64,000 bases of DNA from a virus (lineage: Duplodnaviria; Caudoviricetes): positions 1-64,000 of IMG/VR virus record IMGVR_UViG_2675903036_000001, one strand, 5' to 3'. Below, piece after piece: positions 3,471-59,444 of this stretch. Position 1 is the first letter of the stretch. Every line of letters begins with the position of its first letter. The notes beneath the pieces were generated by a model. It ran no database searches. It saw only the letters and a list, made by a program, of their open reading frames with translations, and was not told where the DNA came from. The position numbers and the translations under genes were made by a program.

Positions 3471-3504
3471 CGTGTGATACGGTCACCCTGTTGGTATGTG
3501 ATGC

Positions 3505-4217: not shown

Positions 4218-4590
4218 TCAGGTGCTACCGATGATTTGGAAATTATCAGTTAATAAAGTACGTAATTCTGCTTTGTAATGATCCAATGTTGTGAAAAAAG
4301 CTTCGCAAGTGCTTTTGAAAAATGAAAAAATTTCATAGTAGCGACCATAGAAAATTTTCTTCTTGAAAAACTTCCAATAACGCTCAATCAAGTTTAGGTT
4401 AGGTGCATATGGCAGCAAAAATATGAGTTTTATTTTTGAATCATTGAGATAATCATTGACCAGTTGGGATCGATAATAACGCGCATTGTCACAAATAATG
4501 TAAATATGTGCTGCTATTGGATGGTGTGCCTCGATCTGCTGAAACAATTGGATAGTCGATTGCGCGTTGATGTAGCTAATTTTGCTATAA
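4218..4590 (-). pseudogene. IS630-family transposase C-terminal fragment
   Basis: ICDNARYY and FLLPYAPNLNLIERYWK motifs. Confidence 0.8.
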
Positions 4591-4609
4591 TTTGTTGTTT
4601 TCCCGGCTG

Positions 4610-4785
4610 CGAAAAAAATGTGGGCGCCACAAACACCCGACAGCAGGCTGTCTGGATAGTCAAAGCGTCAAATGTACTGCGGTTCCTGGGCAACATGGTT
4701 TTGATACTGGCAAGAAGGTTAATGGCCATAAACGTCACATTCTGGTGGACACACTGGGGTTATTGTTGACGGTTGTAGTGACTAT
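4610..4785 (+). pseudogene. IS5-family transposase fragment
   Basis: DSQSVK...GFDTGKKVNGHKRHILVDTLGLLL. Confidence 0.8.
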
Positions 4786-4901
4786 GCTTCCAAACAGCTT
4801 CTTAGAAAGAATCAGCGCAAAAGTTGCTCCAAAGCATGAACTAGTTTATCCTTTCCACCCTATTATTTCTTGGCTGAAAAATCATTTAGCAGGAGCAAAA
4901 A

Positions 4902-4994
4902 GGAGAAGTGACCGAGTGGCTTAAGGTGCACGCCTGGAAAGCGTGTGTATGGTTTATCGCCGTACCGCGGGTTCGAATCCCGCCTTCTCCGCCA
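4902..4994 (+). tRNA. tRNA-Ser (anticodon GGA); probable prophage integration site
   Basis: Acceptor stem GGAGAAG/CTTCTCC; anticodon arm CACGC-CTGGAAA-GCGTG; long variable arm; GGTTCGAATCC T-loop; encoded CCA. Confidence 0.95.
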
Positions 4995-5073
4995 TAGAAC
5001 CATTAAAAATTAAATACTTACAGATAAACGGTTGACTGTTTTTGATCATATTTGGTCATGTTTTTGCATAGCG

Positions 5074-8660: not shown

Positions 8661-10415
8661 TTAAGCTACCGCCTCCTCTTGTGCTTCAACACGCTCAAGT
8701 ACCCCATCTTGCATCCAGTGCACCTGGGTATTGTTAAATGATTTCGCAACATTCTCAGCGTGTTGCTTTTGTAGAGTTCCATTGATAATGCAGGTATCAA
8801 TTTCATTCCTGATCGCAAGCTCTTCGAGAAAAATGAATACGCTTCCTCGTGATGAACTTTCCAGAATATCCATTCCGTCGATGATGAACAGCTTCAGACC
8901 GGACACATGACTGACAGCCTCCGCCAGAAGAACATCTGCGCGCCACTGGAATGACTTTGAGCTCAGGCAATACGGCCTGCCTTCAACCATGACGTTCATA
9001 TCACTATCAAGCGTTACTGGAGGCCATCCGGTGATATCTGCAGTAAATTCCAATCTCTTTAGGAATGGCGCAATTGCTTCTTTTAAAAATTCTCCTGGGA
9101 TACCATCTGGCGCGAGAGCATCAGCCACTTTTAGCCACTTCATTACTTGAGTGTGATGCTCAAGTGCTTTTGCCGTTTTTTGGTCTGCCTCCATTAAAGC
9201 TTTCACTTGTTCAGACAGACTTTTTATTTCATCCTCAAGAGATTTTTTTTGAGACTTCAATTCATCGCGCTTGGCGGTGATCGCAAGAAACGCTGCATCG
9301 TCAATTTGTGATGTAGTTGAATTGATAGCATCAAGCTGTGCTTTTGCTTTTTCTGAATTAGCCAGATCTCGCTTATCGTTTTCAATCGAGTTGAGAATGA
9401 TGTTTAGACTATTTTCAAATGTTGTCAGGTTGGCGGCTGCATCCTCATCACCACTCATATCGCCATGTTCTATTAGTTTTTTATCTCTGCCTAAGAATAT
9501 AACCTCGGTCCCACATGATGGACAGTGACACACCGTATCATCGGAAGTTATGTTACTGGCCAGCCGCCTAGTGTTTTCAATTAACGCCTCTGTGTCTTTG
9601 GCTTGCTGCAAATCGAATTCTAATTTTTTCTGGATCCTTGGTATTTTTGCTGCTTCTTCTTGCAGAGTTGCAATCTCTGATGCTCTGGCATCAGACTTGC
9701 TTTTCTCAGCGTCCATAGCTCCATATTGTTGAGTAACCTGATCATATTCAACATTAATGGTTGCAAGTAATTGCTCTTTTTCCATCACTGCATTTTGCAT
9801 TTGAGTGAGGTCTCCCTCTGCTTTGGCTTTCCATTCAGGGGCCTTTTTATCACCGTAAGCCTCTCCAGTGACGCCTTTCCACAAAACCTTTTCATCTCTG
9901 GCTTTTGTTTGAGCCTCAGCTTGCGCGTCTGGAAATCCTGCGCGTAGGAGCGGAATGACATGATCAGCCATTTGCCCATCAATACCCTTGGCAAGCATGC
10001 GCTCTTTGACCTTTTCGCTTGTTATCTTTGTGCCCGAGATGTTAAGAACAAGTTTGCGTATCTCATCCGATTTGGATGCTGCAAATCTGGATGCAGTGAG
10101 CACGTAGGGGAGGGCGGGCGCAGGATCAATGCCTTGCCCCTTGACCGTTCCGTTTTTCAGAATCCGATGGTAAAAATAGCTATCTCCGATCGTGACTTCT
10201 GCCATGCCATCCTCGTTGCCATTAATGAGCCAAGGAGCTTCTTGTTTGAGTTTGACGCGACAAAGACCGCCGGTTAACGCCATAGACACAGCATCTGCAA
10301 TACAGGTTTTGCCCGATGCGTTATTGCCAGCAACAAAAATAATCGGCTTTTCTGTTTCAATCTCTGCGCTTTTAACTGCGAGGATATTTTTTATTGATAT
10401 CTTGTTGAGTTTCAT
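8661..10415 (-). CDS. SbcC/Rad50-like ATPase
   Basis: Walker A GNNASGKT; coiled coils; central CPSC zinc hook; Walker B-like FIIDGMD. Confidence 0.8.
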   Translation of the reverse strand: MKLNKISIKNILAVKSAEIETEKPIIFVAGNNASGKTCIADAVSMALTGGLCRVKLKQEAPWLINGNEDGMAEVTIGDSYFYHRILKNGTVKGQGIDPAPALPYVLTASRFAASKSDEIRKLVLNISGTKITSEKVKERMLAKGIDGQMADHVIPLLRAGFPDAQAEAQTKARDEKVLWKGVTGEAYGDKKAPEWKAKAEGDLTQMQNAVMEKEQLLATINVEYDQVTQQYGAMDAEKSKSDARASEIATLQEEAAKIPRIQKKLEFDLQQAKDTEALIENTRRLASNITSDDTVCHCPSCGTEVIFLGRDKKLIEHGDMSGDEDAAANLTTFENSLNIILNSIENDKRDLANSEKAKAQLDAINSTTSQIDDAAFLAITAKRDELKSQKKSLEDEIKSLSEQVKALMEADQKTAKALEHHTQVMKWLKVADALAPDGIPGEFLKEAIAPFLKRLEFTADITGWPPVTLDSDMNVMVEGRPYCLSSKSFQWRADVLLAEAVSHVSGLKLFIIDGMDILESSSRGSVFIFLEELAIRNEIDTCIINGTLQKQHAENVAKSFNNTQVHWMQDGVLERVEAQEEAVA

Positions 10416-10750
10416 TTTTTATCCTGTCCTATCTTTTGCAGTAGCTCCACGCACTCTTCTTGAGCATCTTTTGCTGCATCGATCAAGTCTCGCCGCATTA
10501 ATTCCCTTGCAGTCGCAATCACACTTTCAATATGATGCTGCGTTGCCTCACGTAAATATGCATTCAATTCTCTTACTGAACCGGAATATTTGCTTGCATG
10601 CTGTTGGTATGTGACCAGATCGGCTGATAGGGTACTTATTACTAATCTAGCCTTCCCAAATTCTTGATCTTGTCCGACGACGGATAAAAATTCTTCAATT
10701 TCATTTAATTCGGACTTCAATTTCTTGTATGCCTCAATTTTCATAGTCAC
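10412..10750 (-). CDS. Hypothetical protein
   Basis: 4-bp overlaps with both neighbours. Confidence 0.6.
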   Translation of the reverse strand: MTMKIEAYKKLKSELNEIEEFLSVVGQDQEFGKARLVISTLSADLVTYQQHASKYSGSVRELNAYLREATQHHIESVIATARELMRRDLIDAAKDAQEECVELLQKIGQDKK

Positions 10751-17112: not shown

Positions 17113-18063
17113 CTATGGGTAAATCACTTTTAGCTTCTCCAAGTTACCATGCTCGAATTTTTTGTGTAGAGCCGGCCTATCTATAGCGAAGCTTCCAGAT
17201 TTCGCTACTTCATCAATGGCCGAGTTGAGAAACTTAAATAGCTCAGAGCCCGTTGAATTACCCTGAACCAGGGCTTGTTCGTAAATATTCTGTGCTCTTG
17301 CCTCGAATTGATTCCTCATTCCGAGTACGGCGACTTGGTCTTCTGAAACTTCTTCACCTTCGGTAAACATCTCGATAATCCCATCTTCGTTCTGACGTTC
17401 TTTCATACGATATACGAAAATATGATGAGACCTCCTCCGAGGACAGTAGATGCCAGCTGCAAAATCTGTGCTCATTAGATCCAAATCTTCACGACTTAAT
17501 CGATATTTCTTTGCAGACTTTAGCGCCACGTTGATTGAGTGCTCGATAATACTTGCTATGAATTCAAATGATAAAAGACCTTCAAAATGTCTTGGGAGAA
17601 ACATATCCTCACCCCACAAAACCACTCTCGGAGAATCCCTGAGCTCGTTGTGTTCACAGTGACGCTGAACAATGTACTCACCAGGAGAGGAACTTTCACT
17701 GCATGATTTATAAGAGATTTGAAGTTTCGCCAGATGTTCGATGATCGTGTTTAATGCGTGGGTGGCGGTAAGAGTACTTCCTGAAAAGGCTATAAAGCAG
17801 CCAGTTTCTATATACACTTCAAAGTAATCACGAAAATATTCACCTACGAAGTATGGTTTCCATAGTTTTATTGGGACGTGGTGGACCTTCCTCAACCCAC
17901 TAAGAATTGGCTTTTCTCCCTGAGTACCATTTGCAGTTATTACGCTATCTGATACTGCGAATAGTCCTTCGCTACGAAGAGAAATTTTCGACTCTTCTTT
18001 GTGCGCCCAAACCTGTGAAAAACCATCTTTTACCTTTTCGTGCCCAACAATAACTAGAGTCAT
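17113..18063 (-). CDS. Cassette gene, possible Ntn-hydrolase/proteasome-beta-like protein
   Basis: GAGGA RBS then MTLVIVG...AVSDSVIT...IAFSGS; bounded by attC sites. Confidence 0.55.
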   Translation of the reverse strand: MTLVIVGHEKVKDGFSQVWAHKEESKISLRSEGLFAVSDSVITANGTQGEKPILSGLRKVHHVPIKLWKPYFVGEYFRDYFEVYIETGCFIAFSGSTLTATHALNTIIEHLAKLQISYKSCSESSSPGEYIVQRHCEHNELRDSPRVVLWGEDMFLPRHFEGLLSFEFIASIIEHSINVALKSAKKYRLSREDLDLMSTDFAAGIYCPRRRSHHIFVYRMKERQNEDGIIEMFTEGEEVSEDQVAVLGMRNQFEARAQNIYEQALVQGNSTGSELFKFLNSAIDEVAKSGSFAIDRPALHKKFEHGNLEKLKVIYP

Positions 18064-18077
18064 CAGATCCTCATTAA

Positions 18078-18148
18078 GTCTAACGTTCAAGGTCAGGGGC
18101 GCGGCGCGGCTTTATCGCGCAGCGTCCCCCTGCACCCCAGGGTTGGCC
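18078..18148 (-). other. attC site (intact, 71 bp)
   Basis: Minus strand: GGCCAAC-CCTGG-GGT(G)CAGG...CCTGACC-TTGAAC-GTTAGAC; canonical boxes, spacers and extrahelical base. Confidence 0.9.
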
Positions 18149-18155
18149 GTCATTG

Positions 18156-19319
18156 CTATACCCCCGCGCCATCACTGTGCGAAACCGGAATTCTCTTGAA
18201 GTATTTTTTCAAGGCCCAGCCCGTCTGATGGCTCTGTAACAGCCAATGAAAATACTCAAATTGAATCCACTTTCCTCGCTCGGATATTGGCTTCACAACT
18301 TCGCGCGGGAATAGCTTCCCCTCTACGGGGGCTCCATGTTCTGGCCTACGCCTGACTGTAGCGATGCGATCCAAAACCACGAAGCGCTGTTCATCTCGCT
18401 TGGCTTCCTGGACGAGTGCCTTTTCCACGAGGCGTGACAATGACTCAAGTTGCTTGGCTTGGGTCTGAAGGAGCAACCTTTGGGCCTCCAGCCTCTCGTC
18501 AGTTTGCTTTTGCCACTCGCGAGACGACAGCTCTTGATAAATGGGTATCAAGAATGTGAGGATAAAACTCAGCAAGGTCATCAGCTCTAGCTTCCTTCGA
18601 CTGAGGCCAATCCCCGCCTCTACTGGCGCTAACGCCTTCTCGCTCAAGGTGCCATCTGGGGCAATACCGAGGGCGGCAAGTTGAGCCTCCATGCCCTCTG
18701 GCCCAAGAAGCCTCGCGAGAGTACTCGCAGAGGTGAAGTCAACGACGGGCAGAGTCAACCGACCCAGCTGCTCTTGCATTGCTTTCAGCGCACCGATGGA
18801 GTCAACCAATTCGGCAGGCACAGACCAACTTCGTTCAGCCTCTTTATATGCGTTCATTGTCTGGGCAAGGGACCCGGCAATGGAAGTCGCTGAAAGCATC
18901 TCTTGCGCGTGAGAGAACGAAGACTGCATACTTTCCTGCATAGCTTCCGCGACGTGATTGAAGTGGCTAGCCTCTCTAGCGGCCCTCTCCACTTCGGCAC
19001 TCAGGAACGATGATTGTTCGATCTCTTCCATCAGTTTCCGATAACTAGAGTCAAACATCAGACTCTTGCGAATGTCGGCAATGGGATCAAGCATCGTTCT
19101 AATGTGGTCGAGTTGTAGCCTGTTCGCATGCTGGAACTCTTCAGCCATCTTTGCCGCTACTGATGCGGGCTCAGCGAGTAATCGAAGTTGTTCTGAAAGT
19201 GTATTGATTGGTTGGAGGTTCTCAATCCAGCTGCGTCGTGCTTCTTCCATCCTCTTCATTTCTCGATAAACGCTGCTATCCGGAAATGCATTAATAGCGG
19301 ATAGGCCAAGAATCTTCAT
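18156..19319 (-). CDS. Cassette gene: helical protein with one TM and a C-terminal SH3-like domain
   Basis: TM LMTLLSFILTFLIPIY; VRRRP...GKW...TGW. Cassette begins at GTTGGGC (19377). Confidence 0.65.
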   Translation of the reverse strand: MKILGLSAINAFPDSSVYREMKRMEEARRSWIENLQPINTLSEQLRLLAEPASVAAKMAEEFQHANRLQLDHIRTMLDPIADIRKSLMFDSSYRKLMEEIEQSSFLSAEVERAAREASHFNHVAEAMQESMQSSFSHAQEMLSATSIAGSLAQTMNAYKEAERSWSVPAELVDSIGALKAMQEQLGRLTLPVVDFTSASTLARLLGPEGMEAQLAALGIAPDGTLSEKALAPVEAGIGLSRRKLELMTLLSFILTFLIPIYQELSSREWQKQTDERLEAQRLLLQTQAKQLESLSRLVEKALVQEAKRDEQRFVVLDRIATVRRRPEHGAPVEGKLFPREVVKPISERGKWIQFEYFHWLLQSHQTGWALKKYFKRIPVSHSDGAGV

Positions 19320-19607
19320 GAATTACCTTCTATCGCATTGGCATAGGACACTGTGCGATCTGCCTGTGACGCCCAACAACGTATTGTATACGACAAAAAA
19401 TGTCTCATAACTTAGTTAAGGATAGAAAAACACCGAATATAAAATATATGTTCTAGCAAAATAATGGTTATAAATTGCTTTGTGCATATCAACTAATATC
19501 AATATATAAGATACTCATTTCCAGAATCGATTTAAGATAAGGCAGTAGCTTGATCTGAATTATTTAAATGTTATCAGCGAGAAATATCTTCCTTTATGGC
19601 GGACTGT

Positions 19608-28477: not shown

Positions 28478-29389
28478 ATGGTGACTGCTAAAGATATGAC
28501 CGGAATGGTGTTTGGTCGCTTCACGGTAATTCGTCGTGATTCCGAAAGAAAAAGCCATTCTGGTTCAAGGTGGATATGCCGTTGTGAATGCGGCAACGAG
28601 AAATCCATAATTCGAGGCAATCTAATCAGTGGACAAATCAAGTCATGTGGTTGCCTCCTTCTTGGCGATCCAGCTAAGGTTTGCGGGCGAACACTTGGCG
28701 TATCCATTAATTATTTGCCAGGAGAGAGGTTTGGTCGTTTGGTCGTAATTTCTACATGCGAATCTAAAAAAGGAATGTCTCAATTCAATACGCGCTGTGA
28801 TTGTGGAAAGGATGTTACGGTTACAGGTCTGTATTTAAGAAAAAGCAAGAATCCTTCGTGTGGTTGCTACGAGTATGAAAACGCTAGAAATAGGCGATTG
28901 ATAAATTTATCTGGCGAGCGATTTGGCAAACTTACTGCTGTTGAGCGATCTGGAAAAAATTCTTCAGGCCACACATTGTGGTTGTGCAAATGTGACTGTG
29001 GATGTGAAAAGAAAGTTTCTCTTTCTTCATTGCGAAGTGGGCGCACTATTTCATGCGGGTGCGCTAAATCAGATAGTGTCGTTTGGATGCCAAATAATGC
29101 ACTCAGATATTCTCGCCATCGAGGTTCTATTCGTCGTGCGCTGAGGCATGGTGCTAATGGAAAATTCACAGAGAAAGAGATTGAAGAATTAAATAAAAAA
29201 CAAAAAGGTCGCTGTGCTTATTGTGGTGCAAAGTTTGGTAACTCATATGATCGCGATCACATTCAGCCTCTGAGCAAAGGTGGAAGTAACGCGATTGACA
29301 ATATTCAATTGTTATGTCGATCTTGCAATGGTCGTAAAAATGCCAAAGATCCGTTTACATGGGCTAATGAGATTGGGATGCTGTTGTAA
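28478..29389 (+). CDS. HNH homing endonuclease between terS and terL
   Basis: Three G.RFG.L.V...C.CG...SCGC repeats, plus CAYCG..DHIQPLSKGGSN..NIQLLC..CN. Confidence 0.85.
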   Translation: MVTAKDMTGMVFGRFTVIRRDSERKSHSGSRWICRCECGNEKSIIRGNLISGQIKSCGCLLLGDPAKVCGRTLGVSINYLPGERFGRLVVISTCESKKGMSQFNTRCDCGKDVTVTGLYLRKSKNPSCGCYEYENARNRRLINLSGERFGKLTAVERSGKNSSGHTLWLCKCDCGCEKKVSLSSLRSGRTISCGCAKSDSVVWMPNNALRYSRHRGSIRRALRHGANGKFTEKEIEELNKKQKGRCAYCGAKFGNSYDRDHIQPLSKGGSNAIDNIQLLCRSCNGRKNAKDPFTWANEIGMLL

Positions 29390-30912
29390 TGGTTATTCCG
29401 TTATCTATTCGGGCAGCGGCTGAGCTGGAAATTCGCCGCCGCCGCACAGAAGAACTTAAGCGGATTAATGGTGATTCGGAAACTATACGTGAGCGTTTGG
29501 GAATGCCGCAGCTTCACCCTGCTCAAATAAGAATGCTCGCAGAAAGTCGACGTTACAATGTCGCTTCGTGTGGCAGAAGGTTCGGGAAAACTTTCCTCTC
29601 TGCTGATGTGCTCCTTGATGGCCCTCGAAAAAAGGGAGCGCTTCATGGGTACCCGGTGGCGTTGTATGCCCCCACCTATCAAACCATGCTTGAATCGTGG
29701 CGGAATCTAGTTTATCTGCTGAAACCCATTACTTCCCAGAAATCAGAGCAGAATAAGCGTATTGACCTAAATACTGGTGGGTGTATTGAGTTCTGGTCAT
29801 TGGACAATCCTGATGCTGGCCGGGGCAGGAAGTATGCCACGGTAGTTATCGATGAGGCCGCCATGATAAAACGACTGGAAGAATCATGGAGTCAGAACAT
29901 ACAGCCGCTTTTGCTTGATTACCAAGGAGAGGCATGGATTGTTAGCACTCCGAAGGGTGATAATTTCTTCAAGACTCTGTTTGATTATGGTCATGCCGCA
30001 AATCCGGCGCGAGATGACCAATGGCAATCCTGGCAGATACCGACTTGGGAAAATCCTCATATCAATCGGGAAGATATTGAAAGAATGCGCTCTAGCATGC
30101 CTCGTTTGGCGTTCATGCAGGAGATCGAGGCGCAATTCGTAACTTTCGCTGGCACGTTCATTAAGGCAGAGCATCTCCATAGCGGTCAGCCACCGGAGGG
30201 TATGACGCTGTATCAGGGAGTTGATCTTGCAATTTCAATGAAGGAAAACGCTGACTATACTGCAATTGTTACTGTTGGTGTGGATAAGAACACAGGCCGC
30301 GTGTGGATAGTAGATGCAGAACGAAGGCGAGTTGGTTTCCGGGATGCGTTGGATTTTATCCAAAGTAAAGCGGAAAGATGGCGCCCAGAATCGATTGCTA
30401 TTGAAGTGGTGCAATATCAGGCTGCTGTAGTAGAGGAATTATTGCGCTCTACCGATCTTCCTGTGCGACAGGTAAGACCAGATAAAGATAAATTGACGCG
30501 TGCACAAGGCTTGATTACACGATACGAGAACGGGCTTGTCTGGCATGCAGAGACACTTCCACAAGAGTTTATCAACGAACTATTATCGTTTGGCCCGGAC
30601 TGTGAGCATGATGATATGGTCGATGCCGCTGTTTATGGATACATGATGACTGGAGACTATGGGAAAACATTATTTATTCTGCCAAAAAATCCTGAGACAG
30701 AAGTGATGCAGAAACGTCAAGCAATGGTCGAAAGGGGTATGCCTGGCTTACCTGATGGCGTGATGGGAATACTCGAAAAGCAGCCTACGGAAAGCGAGGT
30801 GTGCGGCAATTGCACGGCGTTCAACTCTGAAACCAAGCTGTGTGAAGAGCGGCACGTGAAGGTGCGTGCACACGATCCTGGATGTTCATTATTTGTGGAG
30901 GCGGAGGGTTGA
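29389..30912 (+). CDS. terL: Terminase large subunit
   Basis: GRRFGKT, VIDEAA, STPKG, GVDLA and HDDMVDA. Confidence 0.92.
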   Translation: MVIPLSIRAAAELEIRRRRTEELKRINGDSETIRERLGMPQLHPAQIRMLAESRRYNVASCGRRFGKTFLSADVLLDGPRKKGALHGYPVALYAPTYQTMLESWRNLVYLLKPITSQKSEQNKRIDLNTGGCIEFWSLDNPDAGRGRKYATVVIDEAAMIKRLEESWSQNIQPLLLDYQGEAWIVSTPKGDNFFKTLFDYGHAANPARDDQWQSWQIPTWENPHINREDIERMRSSMPRLAFMQEIEAQFVTFAGTFIKAEHLHSGQPPEGMTLYQGVDLAISMKENADYTAIVTVGVDKNTGRVWIVDAERRRVGFRDALDFIQSKAERWRPESIAIEVVQYQAAVVEELLRSTDLPVRQVRPDKDKLTRAQGLITRYENGLVWHAETLPQEFINELLSFGPDCEHDDMVDAAVYGYMMTGDYGKTLFILPKNPETEVMQKRQAMVERGMPGLPDGVMGILEKQPTESEVCGNCTAFNSETKLCEERHVKVRAHDPGCSLFVEAEG

Positions 30913-30938
30913 AATAAATAAAAATCTAATTGGCTATT

Positions 30939-30997
30939 ATTCTACTTTTGAAATAACCGGCGCGCTTTAACACGTTCAGTTGATTGAGTCGTTGGGC
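30939..30997 (-). other. attC site (terminal, R' degenerate)
   Basis: Minus strand: GCCCAAC-GACTC-AAT(C)AACT...GGTTATT-TCAAAA-GTAGAAT. R'' is the exact complement of this cassette's start GTTGGGC (31424). Confidence 0.75.
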
Positions 30998-31001
30998 GTG
31001 C

Positions 31002-31394
31002 TCACGGTTGCGCCATGAGCGCTTCATAGCCCCACACGATGCAGAGCGCAGCCAACAGTAGCCAAATTGCGATGATTACTGCGCCAGCAACCCGGCTTAC
31101 TGTTTTTCCATTTTTAATGGTTTCCTGTGCTCGTGTTCGGCATTCAGCCAGAACAGAATGGGGAACCAGCTTGATTGCCAATGCAATACCCAGAGGTATC
31201 AGGATGAGATCATCCAGGTAGCCAAGAACAGGCACAAAGTCCGGAATAAGATCAATAGGACTGAAGGCATAAGCAACGATACCGGCAACGAGAAGCTTGG
31301 CATACCAAGGTGTCCGTGGGTCGCGGGCAGCAAGATAAAGCGCAAAGGTTTCCGCCTTGAGATGGCGCGCGCGTTGTTTCAATTTTTCGAGCAC
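31002..31394 (-). CDS. Cassette gene, YkvA/DUF1232 membrane protein
   Basis: DPRTPWYAK..YAFSPIDLIPDFVPVLGYLDD; GTG start after GAGG. Confidence 0.85.
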   Translation of the reverse strand: MLEKLKQRARHLKAETFALYLAARDPRTPWYAKLLVAGIVAYAFSPIDLIPDFVPVLGYLDDLILIPLGIALAIKLVPHSVLAECRTRAQETIKNGKTVSRVAGAVIIAIWLLLAALCIVWGYEALMAQP

Positions 31395-31417
31395 TACCAC
31401 TGCCTCGCTAAATAGAC

Positions 31418-31534
31418 GCCCAACGCCTTGGTTAACCGGCGCCGGAGCACGAAGTGCGGAGGGTACCGACATAGGCCATGAAAATGCCGAAGGCATGGCC
31501 TATGTTGGCGTCCGCGTTGAACCCCCAGTTAGGC
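31418..31534 (-). other. attC site (intact, 117 bp)
   Basis: Minus strand: GCCTAAC-TGGGG-GTT(C)AACG...GGTTAAC-CAAGGC-GTTGGGC. R'' matches the cassette start GTTAGGC (32078). Confidence 0.9.
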
Positions 31535-31582
31535 TGGGGAGCGTAGGCACGGTGTTGCATGTCAGTTTTAATGATGGAAGTG

Positions 31583-32047
31583 TCAAACATCGCTTTGTGA
31601 GCCACCCTTTGCACCATTCGGATAACTGATAACGGCCGCAACGTTACCAACTGGTGCCGTTACTTGAACGCCTATCACTGCTCCGTTCGCGTAGCCATCC
31701 TGTCTTCCATCGCGATGCTTGACCTGATACGAGCCTCCAGGAAGTACCTTAATGCGCCCAGCATTAGCACCTCCTCGAGTTGATGTGTTTTGCGAATCGC
31801 AGTTCGGGCAAAGTAAACGGAGGTTTTCAGTTCTGTTGTCTCTCGAATTTCCTGACTCGTGATCCAGTATGAGCGGCAACGGCTTACCGTTCCATTGCAG
31901 TGGCACGGAAAAAAACTGGCAAGAAGAGTTATCGCATCGTTCAGGTAGGCCTTGGCGTTTTCGCCATGCTAAGTAGTGTCTGCGGACAGTTTGTCGCGAC
32001 TTGGGGTGGTCGGACATACAAAGCACGGAAGTTTGGTCTGGTTGCAT
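31583..32047 (-). CDS. Cassette gene, HNH endonuclease
   Basis: WNGKPLPLILDHESGNSRDNRTENLRLLCPNCDSQ. Confidence 0.8.
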   Translation of the reverse strand: MQPDQTSVLCMSDHPKSRQTVRRHYLAWRKRQGLPERCDNSSCQFFSVPLQWNGKPLPLILDHESGNSRDNRTENLRLLCPNCDSQNTSTRGGANAGRIKVLPGGSYQVKHRDGRQDGYANGAVIGVQVTAPVGNVAAVISYPNGAKGGSQSDV

Positions 32048-32071
32048 GAGAACTTCCTATTGGTGACGAAA

Positions 32072-32221
32072 GCCTAACTAGAATTAGACCTCCGAAATGA
32101 CGCAATATATTACGTCAAAAATGAAATATAACTCGGAAAGTTGCATGCTATTTTCTTATGATTAATAGAATTGCGTCGGTTTAGCTTTCATCATAATAAC
32201 AATCTTCGCTAGATCCACAAA
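32072..32221 (-). other. attI-like crossover site plus conserved upstream element
   Basis: Minus strand GTCTAAT-TCTA-GTTAGGC; 20-bp near-palindrome at 32098-32117; homologous to 61868-62075. Confidence 0.55.
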
Positions 32222-32224
32222 TAT

Positions 32225-32557
32225 ATGAAATTTATATCCGCATTAGTAACCATTCTTATTTCCCATCTGGCATTTGCTTCTGGAGATCACATCCAACCAG
32301 ATAAGTTGGGCGGCTACTTCACTAAAGAGGACCATTACCAATCAGACAGGATGGGCGGTTACTATGCCCCTAACGGAGAGCACCTGCAATCAGATGGTAG
32401 GGGCGGCTACTTTACGCAAAAAGGTCATGTTCAGACTGATAACCAAGGTGGTTATTATGCTCCACAAGGGCATTATCAATCGGACGGCAGGGGTGGATAC
32501 TTCACCCCTGATGGCAAGCATATTCAGTCTGACGGAATGGGTGGGTGGTATAAGTAA
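32225..32557 (+). CDS. Secreted repeat protein
   Basis: Signal peptide, then six HxQxDxxGG(Y/W) repeats of 15-16 aa. Confidence 0.75.
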   Translation: MKFISALVTILISHLAFASGDHIQPDKLGGYFTKEDHYQSDRMGGYYAPNGEHLQSDGRGGYFTQKGHVQTDNQGGYYAPQGHYQSDGRGGYFTPDGKHIQSDGMGGWYK

Positions 32558-32674: not shown

Positions 32675-32756
32675 TGGCCGGGTGTTAGGCTAATAAAAGA
32701 CCTGTCTTGACAGGGAATATGCCAGCCGTCTATGCGCGGTTTTGAGCACCCGGCCA
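32675..32756 (+). ncRNA. C4-like antisense RNA controlling the antirepressor
   Basis: Closing stem TGGCCGGGTG/CACCCGGCCA. CTATGCG is complementary to CGCATAG at 32615 and 32790; TTTTGAG is complementary to CTCAAAA at 32603, 32761 and 32778. Confidence 0.8.
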
Positions 32757-32805
32757 CCCTCTCAAAAAGGGTGAATACTCAAAATAAATCGCATAGGAGG
32801 TCATC

Positions 32806-33630
32806 ATGACTGCTCTTTCTTTAGCTTTTCAATCCACTCAATTCGACGTTGTAGACCGTAACAACCAGCCTTGGCTAAGGAGCCTCCAGATCGGAGGTGC
32901 CTTGGGATATGCCAAGCCAGACCACTCGATTTGGAAATTGTACGAATCTAACAAAGACGAATTCACCGACGCCATGACTGCCTTGGTTGAATTAGAAACT
33001 AATGGCGGAAAACAGAAAGTAAGAATTTTCTCCCTTCGTGGTGCTCATCTTCTCGCCATGTTCGCCCGCACAAAAATCGCTAAAGAATTCAGGAAATGGG
33101 TTCTGGATATCCTGGATCGGGAAACTCAACTACCGAGCAATCCTCAGCAGTTCATTACACCCGAGCAAACCAACGAAATTTACACTCTGGTTTGCGAGCG
33201 CTTCCCAGATGGCCGTGACCGTGTGTACGCATGGAGCCGCTTCAACAATCATTTTCGTATCAATAGCTACAAAAATTTACTGTTTACAAAATACGAGGAG
33301 GCTTGCCGGTATATCCCTTCCATTCCAGGCAAGAAAGAAGTTAGGACGTTACCCGCTCCTATGCCTGCGATCAAACCACCCGTTTGGACAAAGCCCGATC
33401 CTGCGGGCTCAGCAGACGCAATACGCAGCATCCAAACAATGAGAAGCATCATTACGGAATTGCAGACCTGGTGTCATGAGCTTCCCATTGAAGCAGGGAT
33501 GCCGCTATGGGAAGCACTGGATGATGTTAAGAGGCTCCTAATAACTGGCTCAACAGAAGTAAGCGAAGCATTGATGCATATCGGCATCGCCACTCGCTAC
33601 CTGAATCGCTGGATGGGTAGGAGCCAATAG
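32806..33630 (+). CDS. Bro-N family antirepressor
   Basis: RIFSLRGAHLLAMFARTKIAKEFRKWVLDILD. Confidence 0.85.
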   Translation: MTALSLAFQSTQFDVVDRNNQPWLRSLQIGGALGYAKPDHSIWKLYESNKDEFTDAMTALVELETNGGKQKVRIFSLRGAHLLAMFARTKIAKEFRKWVLDILDRETQLPSNPQQFITPEQTNEIYTLVCERFPDGRDRVYAWSRFNNHFRINSYKNLLFTKYEEACRYIPSIPGKKEVRTLPAPMPAIKPPVWTKPDPAGSADAIRSIQTMRSIITELQTWCHELPIEAGMPLWEALDDVKRLLITGSTEVSEALMHIGIATRYLNRWMGRSQ

Positions 33631-33698
33631 AAAGCACAGCACAGGAAAGGGCCTAGATGCTCTTTCCTTTCTCAAGCAAAATAAAAAGGAAGAATAAG

Positions 33699-34775
33699 AT
33701 GAAAAAATGGTTGTTTGTGATGATGCTGTTTCTTAGTGCTTGTGCAGTTCCTCAGGAATCCCAAAGAACATCGTATTGGGATAGTATGAATAATTCCGAG
33801 AAGAGCGCTTTCTTGACACAGCAATTTGCGAAATCTGGAGACTCAAATGAGCAGCTAAAACTTGGTGATGCTTATATGGATGGCTTAGGAATGCCACAGG
33901 ATTCTGAGAAAGCATTTTACTGGACTGAAAAAGCAGCTAATGGTTGGGCTCGTGGAGCAAATTATAAAGTAGGAATCATGTACCAAAAAGGAATCGGCGT
34001 TGAACAAAACTCTGTTAAAGCCGCAGAACATTTCTTAAAAGCAATAGAGAGAGATGTTGATAAAAAAGCAATGATACATTTAGGCGAAATGTATTTGAAT
34101 GGGGATGGCGTTGAGAAAAATATAGAAAAAGGTATTTCTCTCTATGAGAGGGCTGCTGAGGGAGGCGATGCTGATGCTCAATTCGCATTGGGAAAAATTT
34201 ATTTCAATGATTACCGTGTGCCTAAGAATATAAAGCAAGCTCACTACTGGTTGACTACATCTGCTAAAAATGGATATTCAGATCAGGTAAACAGTCTTTT
34301 GAATGATTTGGATAAAGAATTAGCTCAGGCTGAGGCTGATGAGCAAGAGAAGGCTAGAAAAGCGAAAACCGAGCTTAATGAAGCTATAAGAAGCCAGTCC
34401 TATGTTAAACAGTTAAGGCAAAAATACGGAAAACGCTTGAGGTATGAAACCGCTCACGCGCAAACAAGGATTCAATCCTTCAATATTGATTGCCGTGCAA
34501 ACGATGGGCGCTATCTTCCACTTGAGAATGTCTTGCTTGCCAAGATGGCTTCTCTTGATAGTAAACAAGCATATCTGACTATCCGTGCAACTAACCGTGG
34601 TGACGATGTAAGAATCTACGATGAGCTGATAAGTGCAGACGGCAGACGCATGGGCTCAATACCTATGTTTGAGATTAATAAATGGGGGGAATTGCGTACA
34701 TTAGCAGATGTCAGGATTGAGGCTATCCTAAATAGTTGTTTTGGCAGTTTCGGTCCAATATGGGCAAGCAGGTAA
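33699..34775 (+). CDS. Sel1-repeat lipoprotein (moron)
   Basis: Lipobox LSAC; repeated LG.MY..G.GV..(N/D)..KA Sel1 units. Confidence 0.85.
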   Translation: MKKWLFVMMLFLSACAVPQESQRTSYWDSMNNSEKSAFLTQQFAKSGDSNEQLKLGDAYMDGLGMPQDSEKAFYWTEKAANGWARGANYKVGIMYQKGIGVEQNSVKAAEHFLKAIERDVDKKAMIHLGEMYLNGDGVEKNIEKGISLYERAAEGGDADAQFALGKIYFNDYRVPKNIKQAHYWLTTSAKNGYSDQVNSLLNDLDKELAQAEADEQEKARKAKTELNEAIRSQSYVKQLRQKYGKRLRYETAHAQTRIQSFNIDCRANDGRYLPLENVLLAKMASLDSKQAYLTIRATNRGDDVRIYDELISADGRRMGSIPMFEINKWGELRTLADVRIEAILNSCFGSFGPIWASR

Positions 34776-34870: not shown

Positions 34871-35182
34871 ATGAGCAATATTGTTGCTTTGGATTTGACA
34901 TGCGCTAACGCAAAACAATTAATAGCTGAAATAGCGAAAGACAGCGCCAGAGTATTCTATACAACTCATGCGGAAAAGCGCATGAAGGAGCGCAAAATCA
35001 CAAGATCGCAGGTTCAGCGTTGCTTGCTACATGGGAAAATAACTGAAGGTCCGTACCGTGATATTCACGGCAAATGGTGTTTAACTTTGGAAACATTTTC
35101 GGCTGGAGAGCCAGTGGCGGTAGTTGCCGCCCTTGATAAAGACTCTGATGGAAGCATGATTATTATAATAACGTCTTATTGA
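34871..35182 (+). CDS. DUF4258-like (RelE-superfamily) toxin
   Basis: YTTHAEKRMKERKIT...G.I.E; C-terminal IIITSY. Confidence 0.7.
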   Translation: MSNIVALDLTCANAKQLIAEIAKDSARVFYTTHAEKRMKERKITRSQVQRCLLHGKITEGPYRDIHGKWCLTLETFSAGEPVAVVAALDKDSDGSMIIIITSY

Positions 35183-35195
35183 GGAGGGGATCAGC

Positions 35196-35636
35196 ATGTT
35201 GCATTATACAAGCTGCGGGCTACAAAATATTTGGCTTAGGAACGGATATACAACTGTTAAAACTGCTTATGGAGAAGCCACTTCCATTCATGATCTGGAT
35301 GGCTTGCATAAAGCTATTGGGCTGTATTTGGTTAATAACAAACCAAGATTAACAGGCGCGGAACTGCGGTTTCTACGGAAAGAACTTGATTTGTCACAAT
35401 CTCATTTAGCTACCATGCTTGGTGTTAGCGAGCCATCAATCAGGGGGTGGGAGAATAATCGTTCTAAAGTATCTGCTCCAGCAGAAAAAATACTAAGAGC
35501 GATGTATGCGGCAAAAGTGAATGGGCATAGAGATATAAATTCTCTATTGGAGAGGATAAGCCAATTAAACCGTGACATTCATTCAGTCAAGATAGAGCTT
35601 GAAGAAACCAAATCGGGGTGGAAACAAGCTGCTTAA
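35196..35636 (+). CDS. MqsA-like HTH antitoxin
   Basis: HYTSCGLQNIWLRNG; LTGAELRFLRKELDLSQ..LA..LGV....IRGWE. Confidence 0.75.
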   Translation: MLHYTSCGLQNIWLRNGYTTVKTAYGEATSIHDLDGLHKAIGLYLVNNKPRLTGAELRFLRKELDLSQSHLATMLGVSEPSIRGWENNRSKVSAPAEKILRAMYAAKVNGHRDINSLLERISQLNRDIHSVKIELEETKSGWKQAA

Positions 35637-35689: not shown

Positions 35690-37429
35690 ATGAACGACAC
35701 TCCCTCACAAGTAGCTTTCAACGAAGTAGCGCCACAAGATGAGCGCTATGACGCCCATGCAGAGTTACAAAAAAGTGCATTATCAGAATTAATTCCGCGC
35801 CCTGAGATACAGCCGGTCATTGACTATATTCTTGATGACTTGGCTGAACAGGAAATGAGAAAGGCTTTAGCGAAGCCGAATATCATTCCTTTCCCTTCTA
35901 AAGCAGTCAAGAATAAGCAACCTGGCATGCAATCCGTGTATCTGGACGATATGCAGGTATCGGTCATGGGGCACTACTACGATAAGCCTGGCGTGTTCAG
36001 CTTCGACTCCATGCGTGCCATGGTCGAACAGACGCCGATACTCAATTCCGTGATCATGACACGTATCCGCCAGGTTCAGCGGTTCTGCAGGATACAGGAA
36101 TCCGGTCGCGGGCCTGGCTTCGAGATCAAGCTCAAAGACCGTGAGGCAGAGGTAACGGATACCAACCGTCAATCCATCCAATTGATGCAGGATTTCATGC
36201 TTAACTGCGGGTGGGAAGCAAAACCACGCCAGAGAATGCGGCTTAAGCGCGACGATTTCACGTCATTCGTGGCCAAGCTGACTCGGGATAGTCTTACCAT
36301 GGATTCAATGGCTATCGAGACAGAATACAAGCGTGACAGAAAGCTTGGGATGGATGGATTGTATGCCGTGGATGGTTCCACGATCAGGCTTTGCACGGAA
36401 GATGGTTATGAGGGCGATGACGAGATATTCGCGCTGCAGGTGGTGCAGGGGCGCATCCGTACTGCCTATACCTATGACGATCTGATCTATGTGCCGCGCA
36501 ATCCGCGTACGGATGTATTAACTGGTGGTTATGGTCTGGCTGAGACCGAGTTATTGATTCGCGTGGTCACGGGATTTTTAAACGCCATGACCTACAATCA
36601 GAAGTATTTCGATAGTAACGCGATTCCCAAAGGGCTGTTGCACTTATCCGGAAATTATTCCGAGAAAGACCTGTCGGCATTCAAGCGCTACTGGAATGCA
36701 ATGGTGAAGGGTGTCAACAATGCCTGGACGTTGCCGGTCATGGTATCCAAGGATCAGGAATCCCGCGCGGCCTTCGAGCGCTTTGGTGTCGATGTCGATG
36801 AGATGATGTTCTCGAAATGGATGACATTCCTGGCATCGATCATCTGTGCCATTTACGGCATTTCTCCTGATGAGATTAATTTTGAGTCATTCAGCGCAAG
36901 CAAATCATCTCTTTCTGGCTCAGACACGTCTGAGAAGCTGGCAAATTCAAAAGACAGCGGCTTACGTCCACTTCTGACTTATCTGGAAAATATTTTCTCG
37001 GATTTCATTATTCAGGATTTCAGCGAGCAATATGTGTTTCGCTGGACAGGGCTCGATGAGGAAGACGAAGAAAAGCGCCATGAAATTCGCAAGCTGGTAC
37101 TCAAGGTCAATGAAATACGCGCCCAAGAAGGTTACGACAAACTAAATGACAAATGGGGTGAGGCCCCTGTCAATCCTGCCTTGCTTGGCGCTTGGCAGTC
37201 CGAACAGCAACAGAATGATCAAGATTTTGGTAACCCGGACGAGCAAGGCAGTAATTCTGACCAGGAAGATCAATCTGATTTTGGCGATGCAGGAGAGAAT
37301 CAAGGCGATCAGCAAGAAGCGGATTATGGCGATGCGGGTGATAACGATGATGAGACTGCAATCGAGTCCGATGATGAAGAAAATTTAGGAAAGTCTTTCG
37401 GTCTGCCTGTTTACACATTTGAAGTTTAG
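35690..37429 (+). CDS. Portal protein
   Basis: AVDGSTIR, NPRTD...GYG, YFDSNAIPKG, IYGISPDEINF, NEIR; acidic tail. Confidence 0.85.
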   Translation: MNDTPSQVAFNEVAPQDERYDAHAELQKSALSELIPRPEIQPVIDYILDDLAEQEMRKALAKPNIIPFPSKAVKNKQPGMQSVYLDDMQVSVMGHYYDKPGVFSFDSMRAMVEQTPILNSVIMTRIRQVQRFCRIQESGRGPGFEIKLKDREAEVTDTNRQSIQLMQDFMLNCGWEAKPRQRMRLKRDDFTSFVAKLTRDSLTMDSMAIETEYKRDRKLGMDGLYAVDGSTIRLCTEDGYEGDDEIFALQVVQGRIRTAYTYDDLIYVPRNPRTDVLTGGYGLAETELLIRVVTGFLNAMTYNQKYFDSNAIPKGLLHLSGNYSEKDLSAFKRYWNAMVKGVNNAWTLPVMVSKDQESRAAFERFGVDVDEMMFSKWMTFLASIICAIYGISPDEINFESFSASKSSLSGSDTSEKLANSKDSGLRPLLTYLENIFSDFIIQDFSEQYVFRWTGLDEEDEEKRHEIRKLVLKVNEIRAQEGYDKLNDKWGEAPVNPALLGAWQSEQQQNDQDFGNPDEQGSNSDQEDQSDFGDAGENQGDQQEADYGDAGDNDDETAIESDDEENLGKSFGLPVYTFEV

Positions 37430-48681: not shown

Positions 48682-48838
48682 CACGAGCTTCCTGCTGAAG
48701 CAGGACTGCCATTAATGGGATGCGTTAGATGATCTGGCCAAGCTCTTGATCACCGGCTCAACAGAAGTAAGCGAGGCATTGACGCATATCGGCATCGCCA
48801 CTCGCTACCTGAATCGCTGGATGGGAAGGAGCCGCTAA
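48682..48838 (+). pseudogene. Second, frameshifted copy of the antirepressor 3' end
   Basis: Closely similar to 33475-33630; shares GCATATCGGCATCGCCACTCGCTACCTGAATCGCTGGATGGG exactly. Confidence 0.9.
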
Positions 48839-56355: not shown

Positions 56356-57276
56356 ATGAACGACGCGGAGATACTTGCAGCGACACCAGATTACATAAGC
56401 ATCGGGAGCATGCTCAAGGCAACTCCTGCGATGGAGTCTGGGCAGCGTCTGATTTATCTGGAAGCTAGCAACGAGGCGCTTGACCAGCAGAATGAAGTGG
56501 TTCTGCAGAAAGCGCTCAAGGATAGCGCGGACTGGTTTCTGCGCTACGGAAATCTGGATATCGACCATTTCAGTTTGATCGGCAAGCCCAATCCGGCCAA
56601 AGGGTATGCAGGCATACCGGATTATCAGAACTACGAGATTGGTAGACCGCTTGATGTCCGCTTTGATGGTGCCAAGACATTTGTTAAAGGCGAGATTTAT
56701 TCTGGTCAAGGTGCTGCTGCTGAACAGGCCAATCAATTCTGGGAAAGCTTGACTGAAATACAGCCTCCAGCCAGATGGTATCCATCCGTAGGTGGAAGCA
56801 TCATGGAAAAAGCTGTTGAGCTGGATGCCAATACACAAGCGCGCAAAACTGTTATCAGAAAAGTGCGCTGGTCTAATATCGGTTTTAGCAAAACGCCAGT
56901 CAATCCAGCGGTTCCCACAGTGGCCACCGTTCCCATAGGTGTGCTCGTCAAGAGCTGGGGGGCATCCGGTCTTGATATCGCCAAGGCATTGGAAGCAGGT
57001 TACGGCACGGATTCCGCTCAATTGTCGGGCGGCGCGGCATTGCGCAAGCAATCCCTGCATGGCAATCCCATTGGATATTTTGAATTACGCAATCGCTTAT
57101 CGGAGGCTTTGCATAAAGGCAGTCTCGGTAAGAACCCAGGCATACGTGACCTGATTGCGCATTGCACGCAGAAGTTCGGGTTGTCTCGGGACGAGGCCGC
57201 CGAATGTGTTGAGCGCTTCATGCGCGATTTAAAACGTGGGTTGAAAAATCGCCAGGCAATCAGGTCGGGCGGGTAA
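56356..57276 (+). CDS. Prohead protease
   Basis: EASNEALDQQNE, GNLDIDH, IGRP, PSVGG and SKTPVN; upstream of scaffold and MCP. Confidence 0.75.
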   Translation: MNDAEILAATPDYISIGSMLKATPAMESGQRLIYLEASNEALDQQNEVVLQKALKDSADWFLRYGNLDIDHFSLIGKPNPAKGYAGIPDYQNYEIGRPLDVRFDGAKTFVKGEIYSGQGAAAEQANQFWESLTEIQPPARWYPSVGGSIMEKAVELDANTQARKTVIRKVRWSNIGFSKTPVNPAVPTVATVPIGVLVKSWGASGLDIAKALEAGYGTDSAQLSGGAALRKQSLHGNPIGYFELRNRLSEALHKGSLGKNPGIRDLIAHCTQKFGLSRDEAAECVERFMRDLKRGLKNRQAIRSGG

Positions 57277-57983: not shown

Positions 57984-59444
57984 ATGAATCCACAAGTAAT
58001 CCAATCTTTGACCGGCAATGCATCAGGTACTGGTCAGATGTCGTTGGGGGATGTTCAAGATTTGCAGAAGGCGCTTGAAGCGGGTTACGGTACTGATGTT
58101 GCGCAGCTGACTGGTGGCGGTGCGCTGCGTATTCAGTCGCTCGAAAAAACCATGCTGTCCACTATCCAGGAGAATAAGCATTTTGCTTTATTCAACGAGC
58201 TGCAAAAAACCAATGCAACGGCTACGGTAGATGAATGGACTGAGCAATCAGGCGTTGGCGGTAGATTAGGCGGATCGACTAATACTGAGACGGGCAATAT
58301 CCGTGCGGCGCAAGGTCAGTACAATCGTCGTACTGGCATGGTCAAGTACCTGATGACTCGCAGGGAAGTATCGTTCGTACAAACGTTGCAAAATGCGATT
58401 GCGGATGCCGAGGCAGTTGAAGCTCAGAATGGCGCATTGCAGTTGCTGACGGATGCCGAATACCTGTGCTTTGAGGGCGATTCCACGGTTGTTCCTACCG
58501 AGTATGACGGATTGCGCGCATTGCTGTTGGATGGTGTTGATGCTGGCCAGGTGTCTGCGGATAACATCTTGGACGCAGAGGGTCAGTCCCTGGCATCTAT
58601 TGATCTGATCAGCAAAGGCGCTGCGCAAATCGCCGGATATGGCAACTTTGGCACGCCAACACATCTTTTCATGAGCCAGCTTACTCAATCCGATTTTGAT
58701 ATTGGACTTGATCCGGCATGGCGCGTACCGTTAAACGATGTGCCTGGAGGCGGTATCAGCCTGGGCTCTCCCGTGGTCGGTATTCGCACCAGTTGGGGTA
58801 ACATCAAAACAGTTAATGACGTATTCATCCGCGATGAGCGCCAACAAATGCCGCATGAAGCATCCAATGCCGCTGACGCTTCCGCAATGAATGCGATCAA
58901 ACCGGCTTCTGTCGCAGGAGTCGCCACAAGTGATGCTAGCTCAAAGTTTGGCGCTGCGCATGATGGCAATTATTACTACTTTGTTACCGGCGTTAATGCT
59001 GCAGGTGAATCAACCGGCAAGGCATCTGCTCAGGTCGCTGTTGCGGTTGGCGATAAAGTCACGCTGACTATTACCGCGTCAGTTGGCGGAGAGGAGACCG
59101 GATATGTGATCTACCGCAGTCGCCTGAATGGAACAGCCAACGCAAATGATGTGCGTCAGATGGCGCGAGTAGCAAAATCAGGTGCTACCACAACCTACGT
59201 CGATCTGAACCGTGAAATCCCCGGATCGACCAATGCCTATATTCTCAATATGGCTCCAGGCGCGATGGCAATCACCTGGAGACAGTTACTTCCTATGCTG
59301 AAATTCCCGCTCTATCCTACTGTTAGCGCAGTAGTTCCTTGGGCGCAGTTGTTGTTCGGCTATCTTCGTATCGGGAAACGCCGTCATCATGTTCTGATCA
59401 AGAATATCGTGAGCAACGGCGCGCTGTGGAAGCCATTCGCATAA
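57984..59444 (+). CDS. Major capsid protein
   Basis: KAL.AGYGTD...GGALRIQSLE, AEY.CF.GDS...EYDGL, FGTPTHLF and QLLPMLK.PL. Confidence 0.85.
   Translation: MNPQVIQSLTGNASGTGQMSLGDVQDLQKALEAGYGTDVAQLTGGGALRIQSLEKTMLSTIQENKHFALFNELQKTNATATVDEWTEQSGVGGRLGGSTNTETGNIRAAQGQYNRRTGMVKYLMTRREVSFVQTLQNAIADAEAVEAQNGALQLLTDAEYLCFEGDSTVVPTEYDGLRALLLDGVDAGQVSADNILDAEGQSLASIDLISKGAAQIAGYGNFGTPTHLFMSQLTQSDFDIGLDPAWRVPLNDVPGGGISLGSPVVGIRTSWGNIKTVNDVFIRDERQQMPHEASNAADASAMNAIKPASVAGVATSDASSKFGAAHDGNYYYFVTGVNAAGESTGKASAQVAVAVGDKVTLTITASVGGEETGYVIYRSRLNGTANANDVRQMARVAKSGATTTYVDLNREIPGSTNAYILNMAPGAMAITWRQLLPMLKFPLYPTVSAVVPWAQLLFGYLRIGKRRHHVLIKNIVSNGALWKPFA

Follow-up and report, generated by a model that had tools for sequence, protein, structure and literature searches.

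Between the terminase and portal genes of a Nitrosomonas prophage, a short stretch of DNA in front of an HNH endonuclease gene resembles the head of an integron array, and a second, inverted copy of it stands in front of another accessory gene of the same prophage. The question that it raises is whether such an element is a site at which gene cassettes dock and are expressed, the remains of one, or the promoter region of ordinary phage accessory genes. An earlier note on this DNA had proposed a dispersed, stand-alone attI module that both captures and transcribes cassettes. The window referred to below is the whole stretch of DNA that was analysed, which is the initial 64 kb of a virus record of 86,709 bases (CheckV completeness 95%); coordinates of its features are collected in Table 1. 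(A slash within a motif marks the crossover point.)

Table 1. Features of the window that bear on the element, in order of position.
Feature	Position	Strand	Description
Host flank	1-5000		holds 6S RNA 3749-3927 (-) and tRNA 4902-4991 (+)
Phage integrase	5096-6277	-	after host flank
Locus A cassettes	ORFs 18156-19319, 17113-18090	-	attC 18148-18078; unknown function
Head of locus A	19371-19402	-	CATTTTTTGTCGTATACAATACGTT-GTTGGGC (also given as TGTCGTATACAATACGTT-GTTGGGC); attI core, second integron class
Terminase large subunit	29389-30912		PHROGs
Cassette B2	30991-31423	-	DUF1232 membrane protein; ORF listed as 31002-31496
Cassette B1, 654 bp	31424-32077	-	HNH endonuclease ORF 31583-32047 (Pfam, PHROG) and attC 31534-31418
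Simple site	32072-32089	-	GTCTAAT-TCTA-G/TTAGGC; crossover between 32078 and 32077
Platform copy B	32078-32224	-	from base next to former intI start codon to crossover G (32078); 42-copy alignment
Leader ORF	32084-32146	-	20 codons MQLSELYFIFDVIYCVISEV and TAA; stop 6 nt before crossover G
Palindrome	32098-32117	.	TGACGTAATATATTGCGTCA; 20 bp, within leader ORF
Pc-like promoter (putative)	32193-32220	-	TTGTGG 32220-32215, 16-nt spacer, extended -10 TGT-TATTAT 32201-32193
Secreted GGY-repeat protein gene	32225-32557	+	ATG at position of intI ATG in complete integrons
Portal	35690-37429		PHROGs
Head protease	56356-57276		PHROGs
Major head protein	57984-59444		PHROGs
Tail fibre-like	60316-61098		PHROGs
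Virion structural protein	61101-61730		PHROGs
intI stub, copy C	61814-61861	-	first 16 codons MNKPRLGQMRDKLRLK of ORF 61670-61861
Platform copy C, decayed	61861-62079	+	promoter half 61861-61960; block 62053-62079 with TTTCATTTTTGACGT
Cassette C1	62133-62625	+	Gly/Ala-rich 120-aa protein 62133-62495 and attC 62544-62625

Two copies in a prophage of Nitrosomonas

The host of the prophage is Nitrosomonas. That genus accounts for 14 of the 16 genome loci with more than 50 nt of match to the element, and the sister-prophage genome of Nitrosomonas sp. Nm132 (G002, the genome of locus L196) carries part of this prophage region at 98% identity. Copy B lies in a 4.7-kb accessory block in the terminase-portal interval and copy C lies 3' of the virion structural gene. 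Other features of this prophage include a Sel1-repeat lipoprotein-like gene (33657-34775), a toxin-antitoxin-like pair just 5' of the portal gene (a DUF4258 protein and an HTH_3 protein, 34871-35636, +), and a 119-nt direct repeat of 86% identity that links 33507-33625, near the end of a BRO-N gene, with 48715-48833. Between the GGY-repeat gene and the BRO-N/ORF6C anti-repressor-like gene is a full-length Rfam match to sRNA-Xcc1 (32676-32763, +; 68.4 bits against a gathering score of 53), which starts GGCCGGGTGTTAGGC. The available text of a preprint describes the Xanthomonas sRNA-Xcc1 as cassette-borne and 5' of symE (bioRxiv 10.1101/2025.06.18.660453); no symE-like gene follows the match in the window.

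The inverted similarity of the two copies that the earlier note described is borne out by alignment: the reverse complement of 32128-32228 matches 61861-61958 at 71-84% identity over ~100 nt, a repeat search dividing it into pairs I1 (32128-32204 with 61882-61958, 77 nt, 71%) and I2 (32191-32228 with 61861-61898, 38 nt, 84%). The exact TTTCATTTTTGACGT said to be common to both copies is contained in a further inverted pair, I6 (32108-32134 with 62053-62079, 27 nt, 89%). By BLAST the whole 86,709-base record contains only two copies, with E of 1.5e-11 in the long block and 1.7e-4 in the short block; the next-best matches within the record have E of at least 0.09. Both aim into downstream genes, B into the HNH gene and C into that of the Gly/Ala-rich protein, and the near-perfect 20-bp palindrome and GTCTAAT-TCTA-GTTAGGC are present in B where they had been placed. 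(The span delimited at the outset, 32072-32221, amounts to platform copy B plus the first six bases of the cassette.) GTTAGGC by itself is non-significant, with 7 matches in the window against 4.4 expected, and the evidential weight must come from comparative data.

Copy C is decayed. It lacks the GTT core, as previously noticed, and the right palindrome arm and the L box are missing as well; it has gained an AT-rich insertion of ~100 nt, an ORF of 13 codons starts at the ATG of 61940, and homology is lost after TTTTTGACGTCAT. Copy C cannot work as an attI, and without a recombination core it has at most a promoter role for its one cassette. On its other side it keeps an intI stub of 16 codons, to be compared with the N-termini of IntI at L208 (MTNKSRLLDQMRDKLRLKHYSYRTEQ) and L244 (..ENKPRLLDQVRDKLRFKHYS). 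The element was therefore not stand-alone from its origin.

The arrays behind B and C are those of integrons, their attC sites having the canonical R''-5-L''...L'-5-R' layout. The attC of B1 reads GCCTAAC-TGGGG-GTTCAAC ... GTTAACC-AAGGC-GTTGGGC and that of C1 GCCTAAC-TTCCG-CTTCAAC ... GTTAAGC-GGAGC-GTTATAA; a strict finder also found the former and caught the inner part of the latter. B2 ends in a degenerate GCCCAAC (30997-30991) adjoining the terminase gene end, and the true start of its DUF1232 ORF is probably internal to the listed ORF. The C1 protein has no family match in Pfam or PHROG. There are thus one full attC and one degenerate end at B, one attC at C and one clear attC at A, with a possible second after 17113; these were read from the sequence, a CALIN being defined as a cluster of at least two attC sites with no integrase nearby. 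Contigs of soil run X2 pile up on 31410-31590, the attC of the HNH cassette (summed depth 47.8), and contigs of the RNA-library run X19 cover 31418-31559, again this attC only, which has no bearing on transcription of the element (the runs on record as RNA contribute small shares, as contigs). Together the two suggest an attC type that is common in these communities.

Locus A had been described as carrying a weaker echo of the element. The echo exists, CATTTTTTGTCGTA at 19389-19402 (-) preceding GTTGGGC at 19377-19371, and is now refined to the attI of a different integrase class. Its head matches L268, L269 and L264 over 18-34 nt (E 0.03-0.09), in each case 120-155 nt upstream of an intact intI of the other class and in the expected place and orientation; it also resembles the attI of L203 (N. 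marina Nm71), ATGTCGTATATATTGC/GTTAGGT. The prophage thus holds array heads of two integron classes.

The element beside integron integrase genes

Of 190 Nitrosomonadaceae genomes, the family of G001, 81 contain the ~170-nt element (BLAST with copy B as query, E <=1e-5). Copy numbers from BLAST count the best four matches per genome and are therefore minima. A 28-nt core pattern with <=3 mismatches finds 2-5 copies in each of five genomes and the reversed-pattern control finds 0; core-pattern and BLAST places together give G001 at least six copies, and in G094 five copies are spread across 2.2 Mb of one contig. The term "dispersed" is accordingly apt, at 2-6 copies in each of the five genomes checked and with most copies lacking intI. 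Removal of 8 duplicates from 54 placements leaves a working set of 46 unique copies.

A pattern back-translated from eight codons of the small ORF of the element retrieves three true viral-contig homologues (L136, L138 and L144) and 46 stretches in species-representative genomes; L155/L189 (Atopobium) is a chance match of this pattern. Exact-pattern scans of viral contigs with 15 and 16 specified bases yielded L010-L154, all chance matches except the same three, which are the sole members of that series to match beyond the seed. GenBank phage records contain no match to copy B or C (blastn, E limit 1). In the cassette region that follows the element in L136 there is a different Gly/Ser/Thr-repeat secreted ORF (10112-10522). 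In Mu-like L136 (9300-9330) and L138 (5225-5250) a second motif resembling TAAT..TTCTAGTTAAC adjoins the head protease gene; it lies ~230 nt upstream of the element and is oppositely directed.

What the element adjoins is most clearly seen in complete integrons. In G105, G029, G125 and G051 an intact, divergent intI starts 27-40 bp from it; these genes have 325-340 codons, and their TIGR02249 scores of 494-503 bits exceed the cut-off of 265. Copy B is homologous to the complete integrons L242-L244 and L246, and L244 displays the whole layout: intI, element, TCTAG/TTATGC, and a first cassette for a papain-like protein. Divergent remnants of intI lie directly upstream in 6 of the 46 unique copies (tblastn with full IntI; the remnants span from residues 14-46 up to 8-322 with breaks), and two more copies are beside partial intI by coordinates (G120:C97 and G029:C72), bringing places with decayed intI to at least eight. 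The amount of intI DNA retained per copy ranges from 0 to ~980 nt (BLAST to L244). At L208, for example, an IntI fragment of 107 codons (MTNKSRLLDQMRDKLRLKHYSYRTEQ...) remains, its start codon appearing as the CAT directly before ATTTGTGGATC at the 5' end of the element. A divergent intI directly beside the element is thus found within the element family; in the window it is represented by the stub at C and by nothing at B. Copy B retains no intI codons, and the ATG of the GGY-repeat gene (32225) has taken the place of the intI ATG so exactly that this gene, which has no family match in Pfam or PHROG, may use the old intI promoter.

Of the 190 genomes, 41 have an IntI that exceeds the TIGR02249 cut-off, and 4 of 31 fetched intI loci have the element (BLAST); the other 27, with different attI regions, indicate that the family has several integron classes. 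No integron integrase is found in the 86.7-kb record (TIGR02249, no match >25 bits, the phage integrase alone matching weakly), neither window copy is a complete integron with its own intI, and Nm132 holds no intact intI, only fragments. Among the 81 genomes with the element, 60 have no IntI match at E <=1e-40 in a hand comparison, many of them being drafts in which absence is unproven.

The check that had been proposed, a BLAST search of the host genus, thus finds the element where an attI should be, before GTT-started cassettes and beside intI. The "solo-attI module" is upheld, with a refinement: the element does stand alone in most places, but as a remnant of a full integron platform. It is very probably the cassette-proximal platform of a Nitrosomonas-type integron that lost its integrase gene.

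A simpler origin would be an ordinary promoter and 5' leader of phage moron genes, spread by homologous recombination and devoid of any site-specific role. The element is indeed upstream of accessory genes, here and in L136 and L138, and with its promoter-like site and leader ORF could act as a homology patch for exchange. Most copies, however, are chromosomal, and the intact intI next to four of them and the decayed intI next to at least eight are foreign to this explanation, which the junction, considered below, renders very improbable.

Anatomy of the platform and its cassette junction

Taken in order from the place of the divergent intI start, the platform consists of an extended -10 promoter-like site directed toward the cassettes, a Shine-Dalgarno sequence and leader ORF, the palindrome enclosed in that ORF, an L box (GTCTAAT) and, after TCTA, the crossover G/TT at which cassettes join. 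The extended -10 motif (TGnTAnnnT-GA) is kept in 26 of 42 copies, with TATGAT as the consensus box and TATTAT in B; the -35-like hexamer is also kept in 19 of the 42, in 18 of them at 16-nt spacing. A standard consensus promoter scan does not list the Pc-like site because its -35 hexamer matches at 3 of 6 positions. Judged by its sequence and placement, the site may drive the cassettes.

Of the 42 copies that have the SD-ATG anchor, 32 keep a leader ORF of exactly 20 codons; it finishes in the TAATTCTAG block, with its stop 6 nt ahead of the crossover G. Its Shine-Dalgarno sequence is GGAG in most copies and GAAA in B. Codons 2-7 are variable and the remainder is conserved even at synonymous sites, which implies that the peptide itself is probably unimportant. 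The ORF is predicted to be translated; it may also be a by-product of constraint at the DNA level.

In the top strand of the palindrome 98.2% of cells in the alignment pair, a T.G occurs at one pair in 35 of 42 copies, and there is one double compensatory change among the 42. Pair counts are not above those of shuffles in these 42 copies, where variation is too small for a test of covariation, and no claim of RNA structure is made. Rfam at E <=10 gives no match on the element itself. Both palindrome arms contain the motif GACG[TC]AAT, which is repeated further upstream (CGACGCAAT) and, with changes, in the L box. A comparison with DR1, DR2 and L of attI1 makes these repeats candidate integrase-binding sites. 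The LexA box CTGT-N8-ACAG has no match within either copy (the window as a whole has 16, with 17.5 expected).

A conserved, hairpin-capable palindrome near one end could also mark an unusual cassette-borne site of attC type, or a transposon end, and some 5'-truncated copies do follow a gene of the same direction (L144/L193, for example, after a nuclease gene). However, the element has no R''/L'' partner (that is, no AAC-containing partner) upstream of GTT, and the core is outside the palindrome, 19 nt away from it. The conserved part includes an intI stub as well as a promoter half, the 5' ends vary with the amount of intI retained, no transposase gene lies beside the copies inspected, and the position at array heads is constant. 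An origin as attC or transposon end is hardly credible.

The junction is sharply defined. In 43 copies anchored on TAATTCTAG homology ends at TAATTCTAG/TTRRRY: mean pairwise column identity is 0.80 for the 40 columns before the crossover (-40 to -1), 0.72 for TT (+1, +2), 0.47 for RRRY (+3 to +6) and 0.26 from +7 to +46. G/TT is found in 31 of the 43 and exact GTTRRRY in 21, copy B conforming and copy C not; among the 12 without G/TT are A/TT in L136 and L218, G/AT in L138 and G/CT in L187. There are 15 versions of the six bases that follow G (TTAGGC, TTAGGT, TTATGC, TTAGAT and TTGGGC, for example). The fall in identity together with the variability of these six bases marks a single attI to which different cassettes have been joined. 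A strict attC-like finder (home-made, of unknown sensitivity) gives matches in 13 of the 46 flanks downstream and in 3 of the 46 upstream. A lenient version was dropped as unspecific, with 33 downstream matches against 19 and 17 in upstream controls; a reverse-complement control is uninformative since attC sites are quasi-palindromic. Homology that stops at one base, at G/TT and then RRRY, with attC sites following, is not what homologous spread of a moron leader would leave.

Cassettes differ at this junction between close relatives. The sister prophage L210 matches window 29918-31425 (terminase and DUF1232) at 98.2% over 1508 nt and window 32072-32550 (element and GGY gene) at 87%, and is without 31426-32071. 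What is missing is the HNH cassette (32077-31424), so that the platform of L210 runs straight into the DUF1232 cassette, ...TCTAATTTCG/TTGGGC. (The joint is imperfect, TTTCG against TTCTAG, within the 87%-identical region.) An indel of exactly one cassette is a further point against the moron-leader explanation. Among the contigs of soil run X2, one passes from 31425 to 32082 across a single extra letter and another carries the HNH gene without differences, and at least 19 contig ends in X2, X5 and X7 (three studies) diverge at 32072, 32074 or 32075 into dissimilar sequence. The summed contig depth of X2 over 32047-32137, 305.6 against ~1-100 in neighbouring bins, means only that many contigs share this interval.

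An orthologous chromosomal locus in three species provides a further comparison. L219 (G064), L225 (G081) and L223 (G125) have in common a 1.2-kb upstream flank of 91-93% identity, the same truncation of intI (18 codons left) and an element of 94-99% identity, and their first cassettes are unrelated; between L219 and L225 an identity of 99.7% resumes over 629 nt, the next cassette, at G/TTGGRC after two different attC sites. A shared truncation with different first cassettes implies that the first position changed after intI was already broken. On this comparative evidence cassettes are gained and lost at the site as units. The differences in first cassette could alternatively reflect homologous exchange between arrays rather than integrase action.

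The platform would operate in the following way. An integron integrase from elsewhere in the cell would recombine the double-stranded site with a folded attC, and recombination at G/TT would insert or remove cassettes in first position; the promoter and the translated leader would express those that are docked. At copy B this would concern the HNH and DUF1232 cassette array between the terminase and portal genes; copy C, reduced to stub and promoter half, would at most drive its single cassette. Recombination would require an integrase in trans. With no integrase in the record and fragments in Nm132, recombination at B is not ongoing there unless an integrase arrives from elsewhere.

In another reading the element was once attI and Pc, all copies without intI are now inert, and cassette differences either predate the loss of intI or result from homologous exchange. 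The lack of intI in the record, of an intact one in Nm132 and of any match in most of the element-bearing genomes favours it, as does the visible decay of copy C and several others. On the other hand, copies keep ~80% identity or more in the 28-nt core and at the junction, between flanks that are unrelated, and a single intI truncation is found in three species whose first cassettes differ. Moreover, in G125 an intI-less copy (L223) coexists with a complete integron, L244, whose attI class is the same. That all intI-less copies are dead is on balance rather unlikely. That the intact intI-less platforms are live docking sites, served in trans by any cognate integrase, is put forward tentatively, as a reading that may well prove wrong.

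Precedents and implications

The usual picture of an integron has one integrase with a single attI and a single array, and clusters of attC sites without an integrase (CALINs) are treated as debris. The integron integrase of Nitrosomonas europaea is said to excise and integrate cassettes, a finding of Leon and Roy from 2003. The literature searched gave no account of the element, nor of attI/promoter units that lack intI and are dispersed in Nitrosomonas, although the N. europaea integrase paper might hold one.

Parts of integrons have been reported from phages before, and the closest precedent is a Shewanella prophage cassette array with its own attI. Prophage M16-3, in the available text of its description, bears a complete integron as well as a CALIN, both with a Shewanella attI and with phage structural genes flanking (Qi et al. 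2023, PMC9892861). Like that CALIN, the array at B is integrase-less, resides in a prophage, is headed by an attI of host type and has capsid, tail or terminase genes as neighbours. M16-3 differs in that the complete integron there has its IntI intact; the attI is described, in the same text, as a 28-nt Shewanella-type motif (PMC9892861). Here, in contrast, there is no integrase in the record, one platform is present in two copies and a third array has another attI class; and the unit is one of ~170 nt, with a promoter-like site and a leader ORF, dispersed through the host family.

A second comparison is with attI1 of class 1 integrons. According to the available account of attI1, it is likewise double-stranded, with a simple site ending in G/TTRRRY and further repeats upstream; its ORF-11 and its ORF-17 are likewise short, with a GGAG Shine-Dalgarno sequence of their own and an end just before the first cassette, and ORF-17, like the leader ORF, has its own stop (PMC8876359). 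It is the translation of ORF-11, rather than its peptide, that enhances expression of the first cassette, as stated there (PMC8876359). Set against what that account gives for attI1, the element has no sequence similarity to it; its upstream motifs form an inverted repeat instead of the direct repeats DR1 and DR2, its putative promoter is in the intergenic region by the intI start and not inside intI, and its ORF has 20 codons.

CALINs, defined by attC alone, are proposed to be degraded integrons in the portion of the IntegronFinder 2.0 paper that deals with them, which also states that attI sites outside class 1 are poorly described and not detected by that program (PMC9024848). Copies B and C would fit this view of CALINs as degraded integrons (PMC9024848). 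What sets them apart is that the attI/promoter end itself is the conserved, repeated unit.

What appears to be new, as read from sequence comparison, is an integron platform without integrase that is repeated within genomes and carried by a prophage, and at which cassettes seem still to be changing. The attI/promoter end emerges as a recognisable unit of ~170 nt, at several loci per genome and across a bacterial family. It persists in genomes in which no integrase is found and sits in the structural modules of prophages, and cassettes have turned over at a locus whose intI was already truncated. It also provides a sequence handle for array heads in Nitrosomonas genomes and metagenomes.

If such sites work in trans, cassette capture and expression would not be tied to the integrase locus, and temperate phages that infect ammonia oxidisers would receive cassettes as well as carry them. 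A Nitrosomonas genome together with its prophages would then be one distributed integron with several expression-ready entry points, in which lysogenic phages could swap accessory genes through sites in their structural modules and move whole arrays between hosts.
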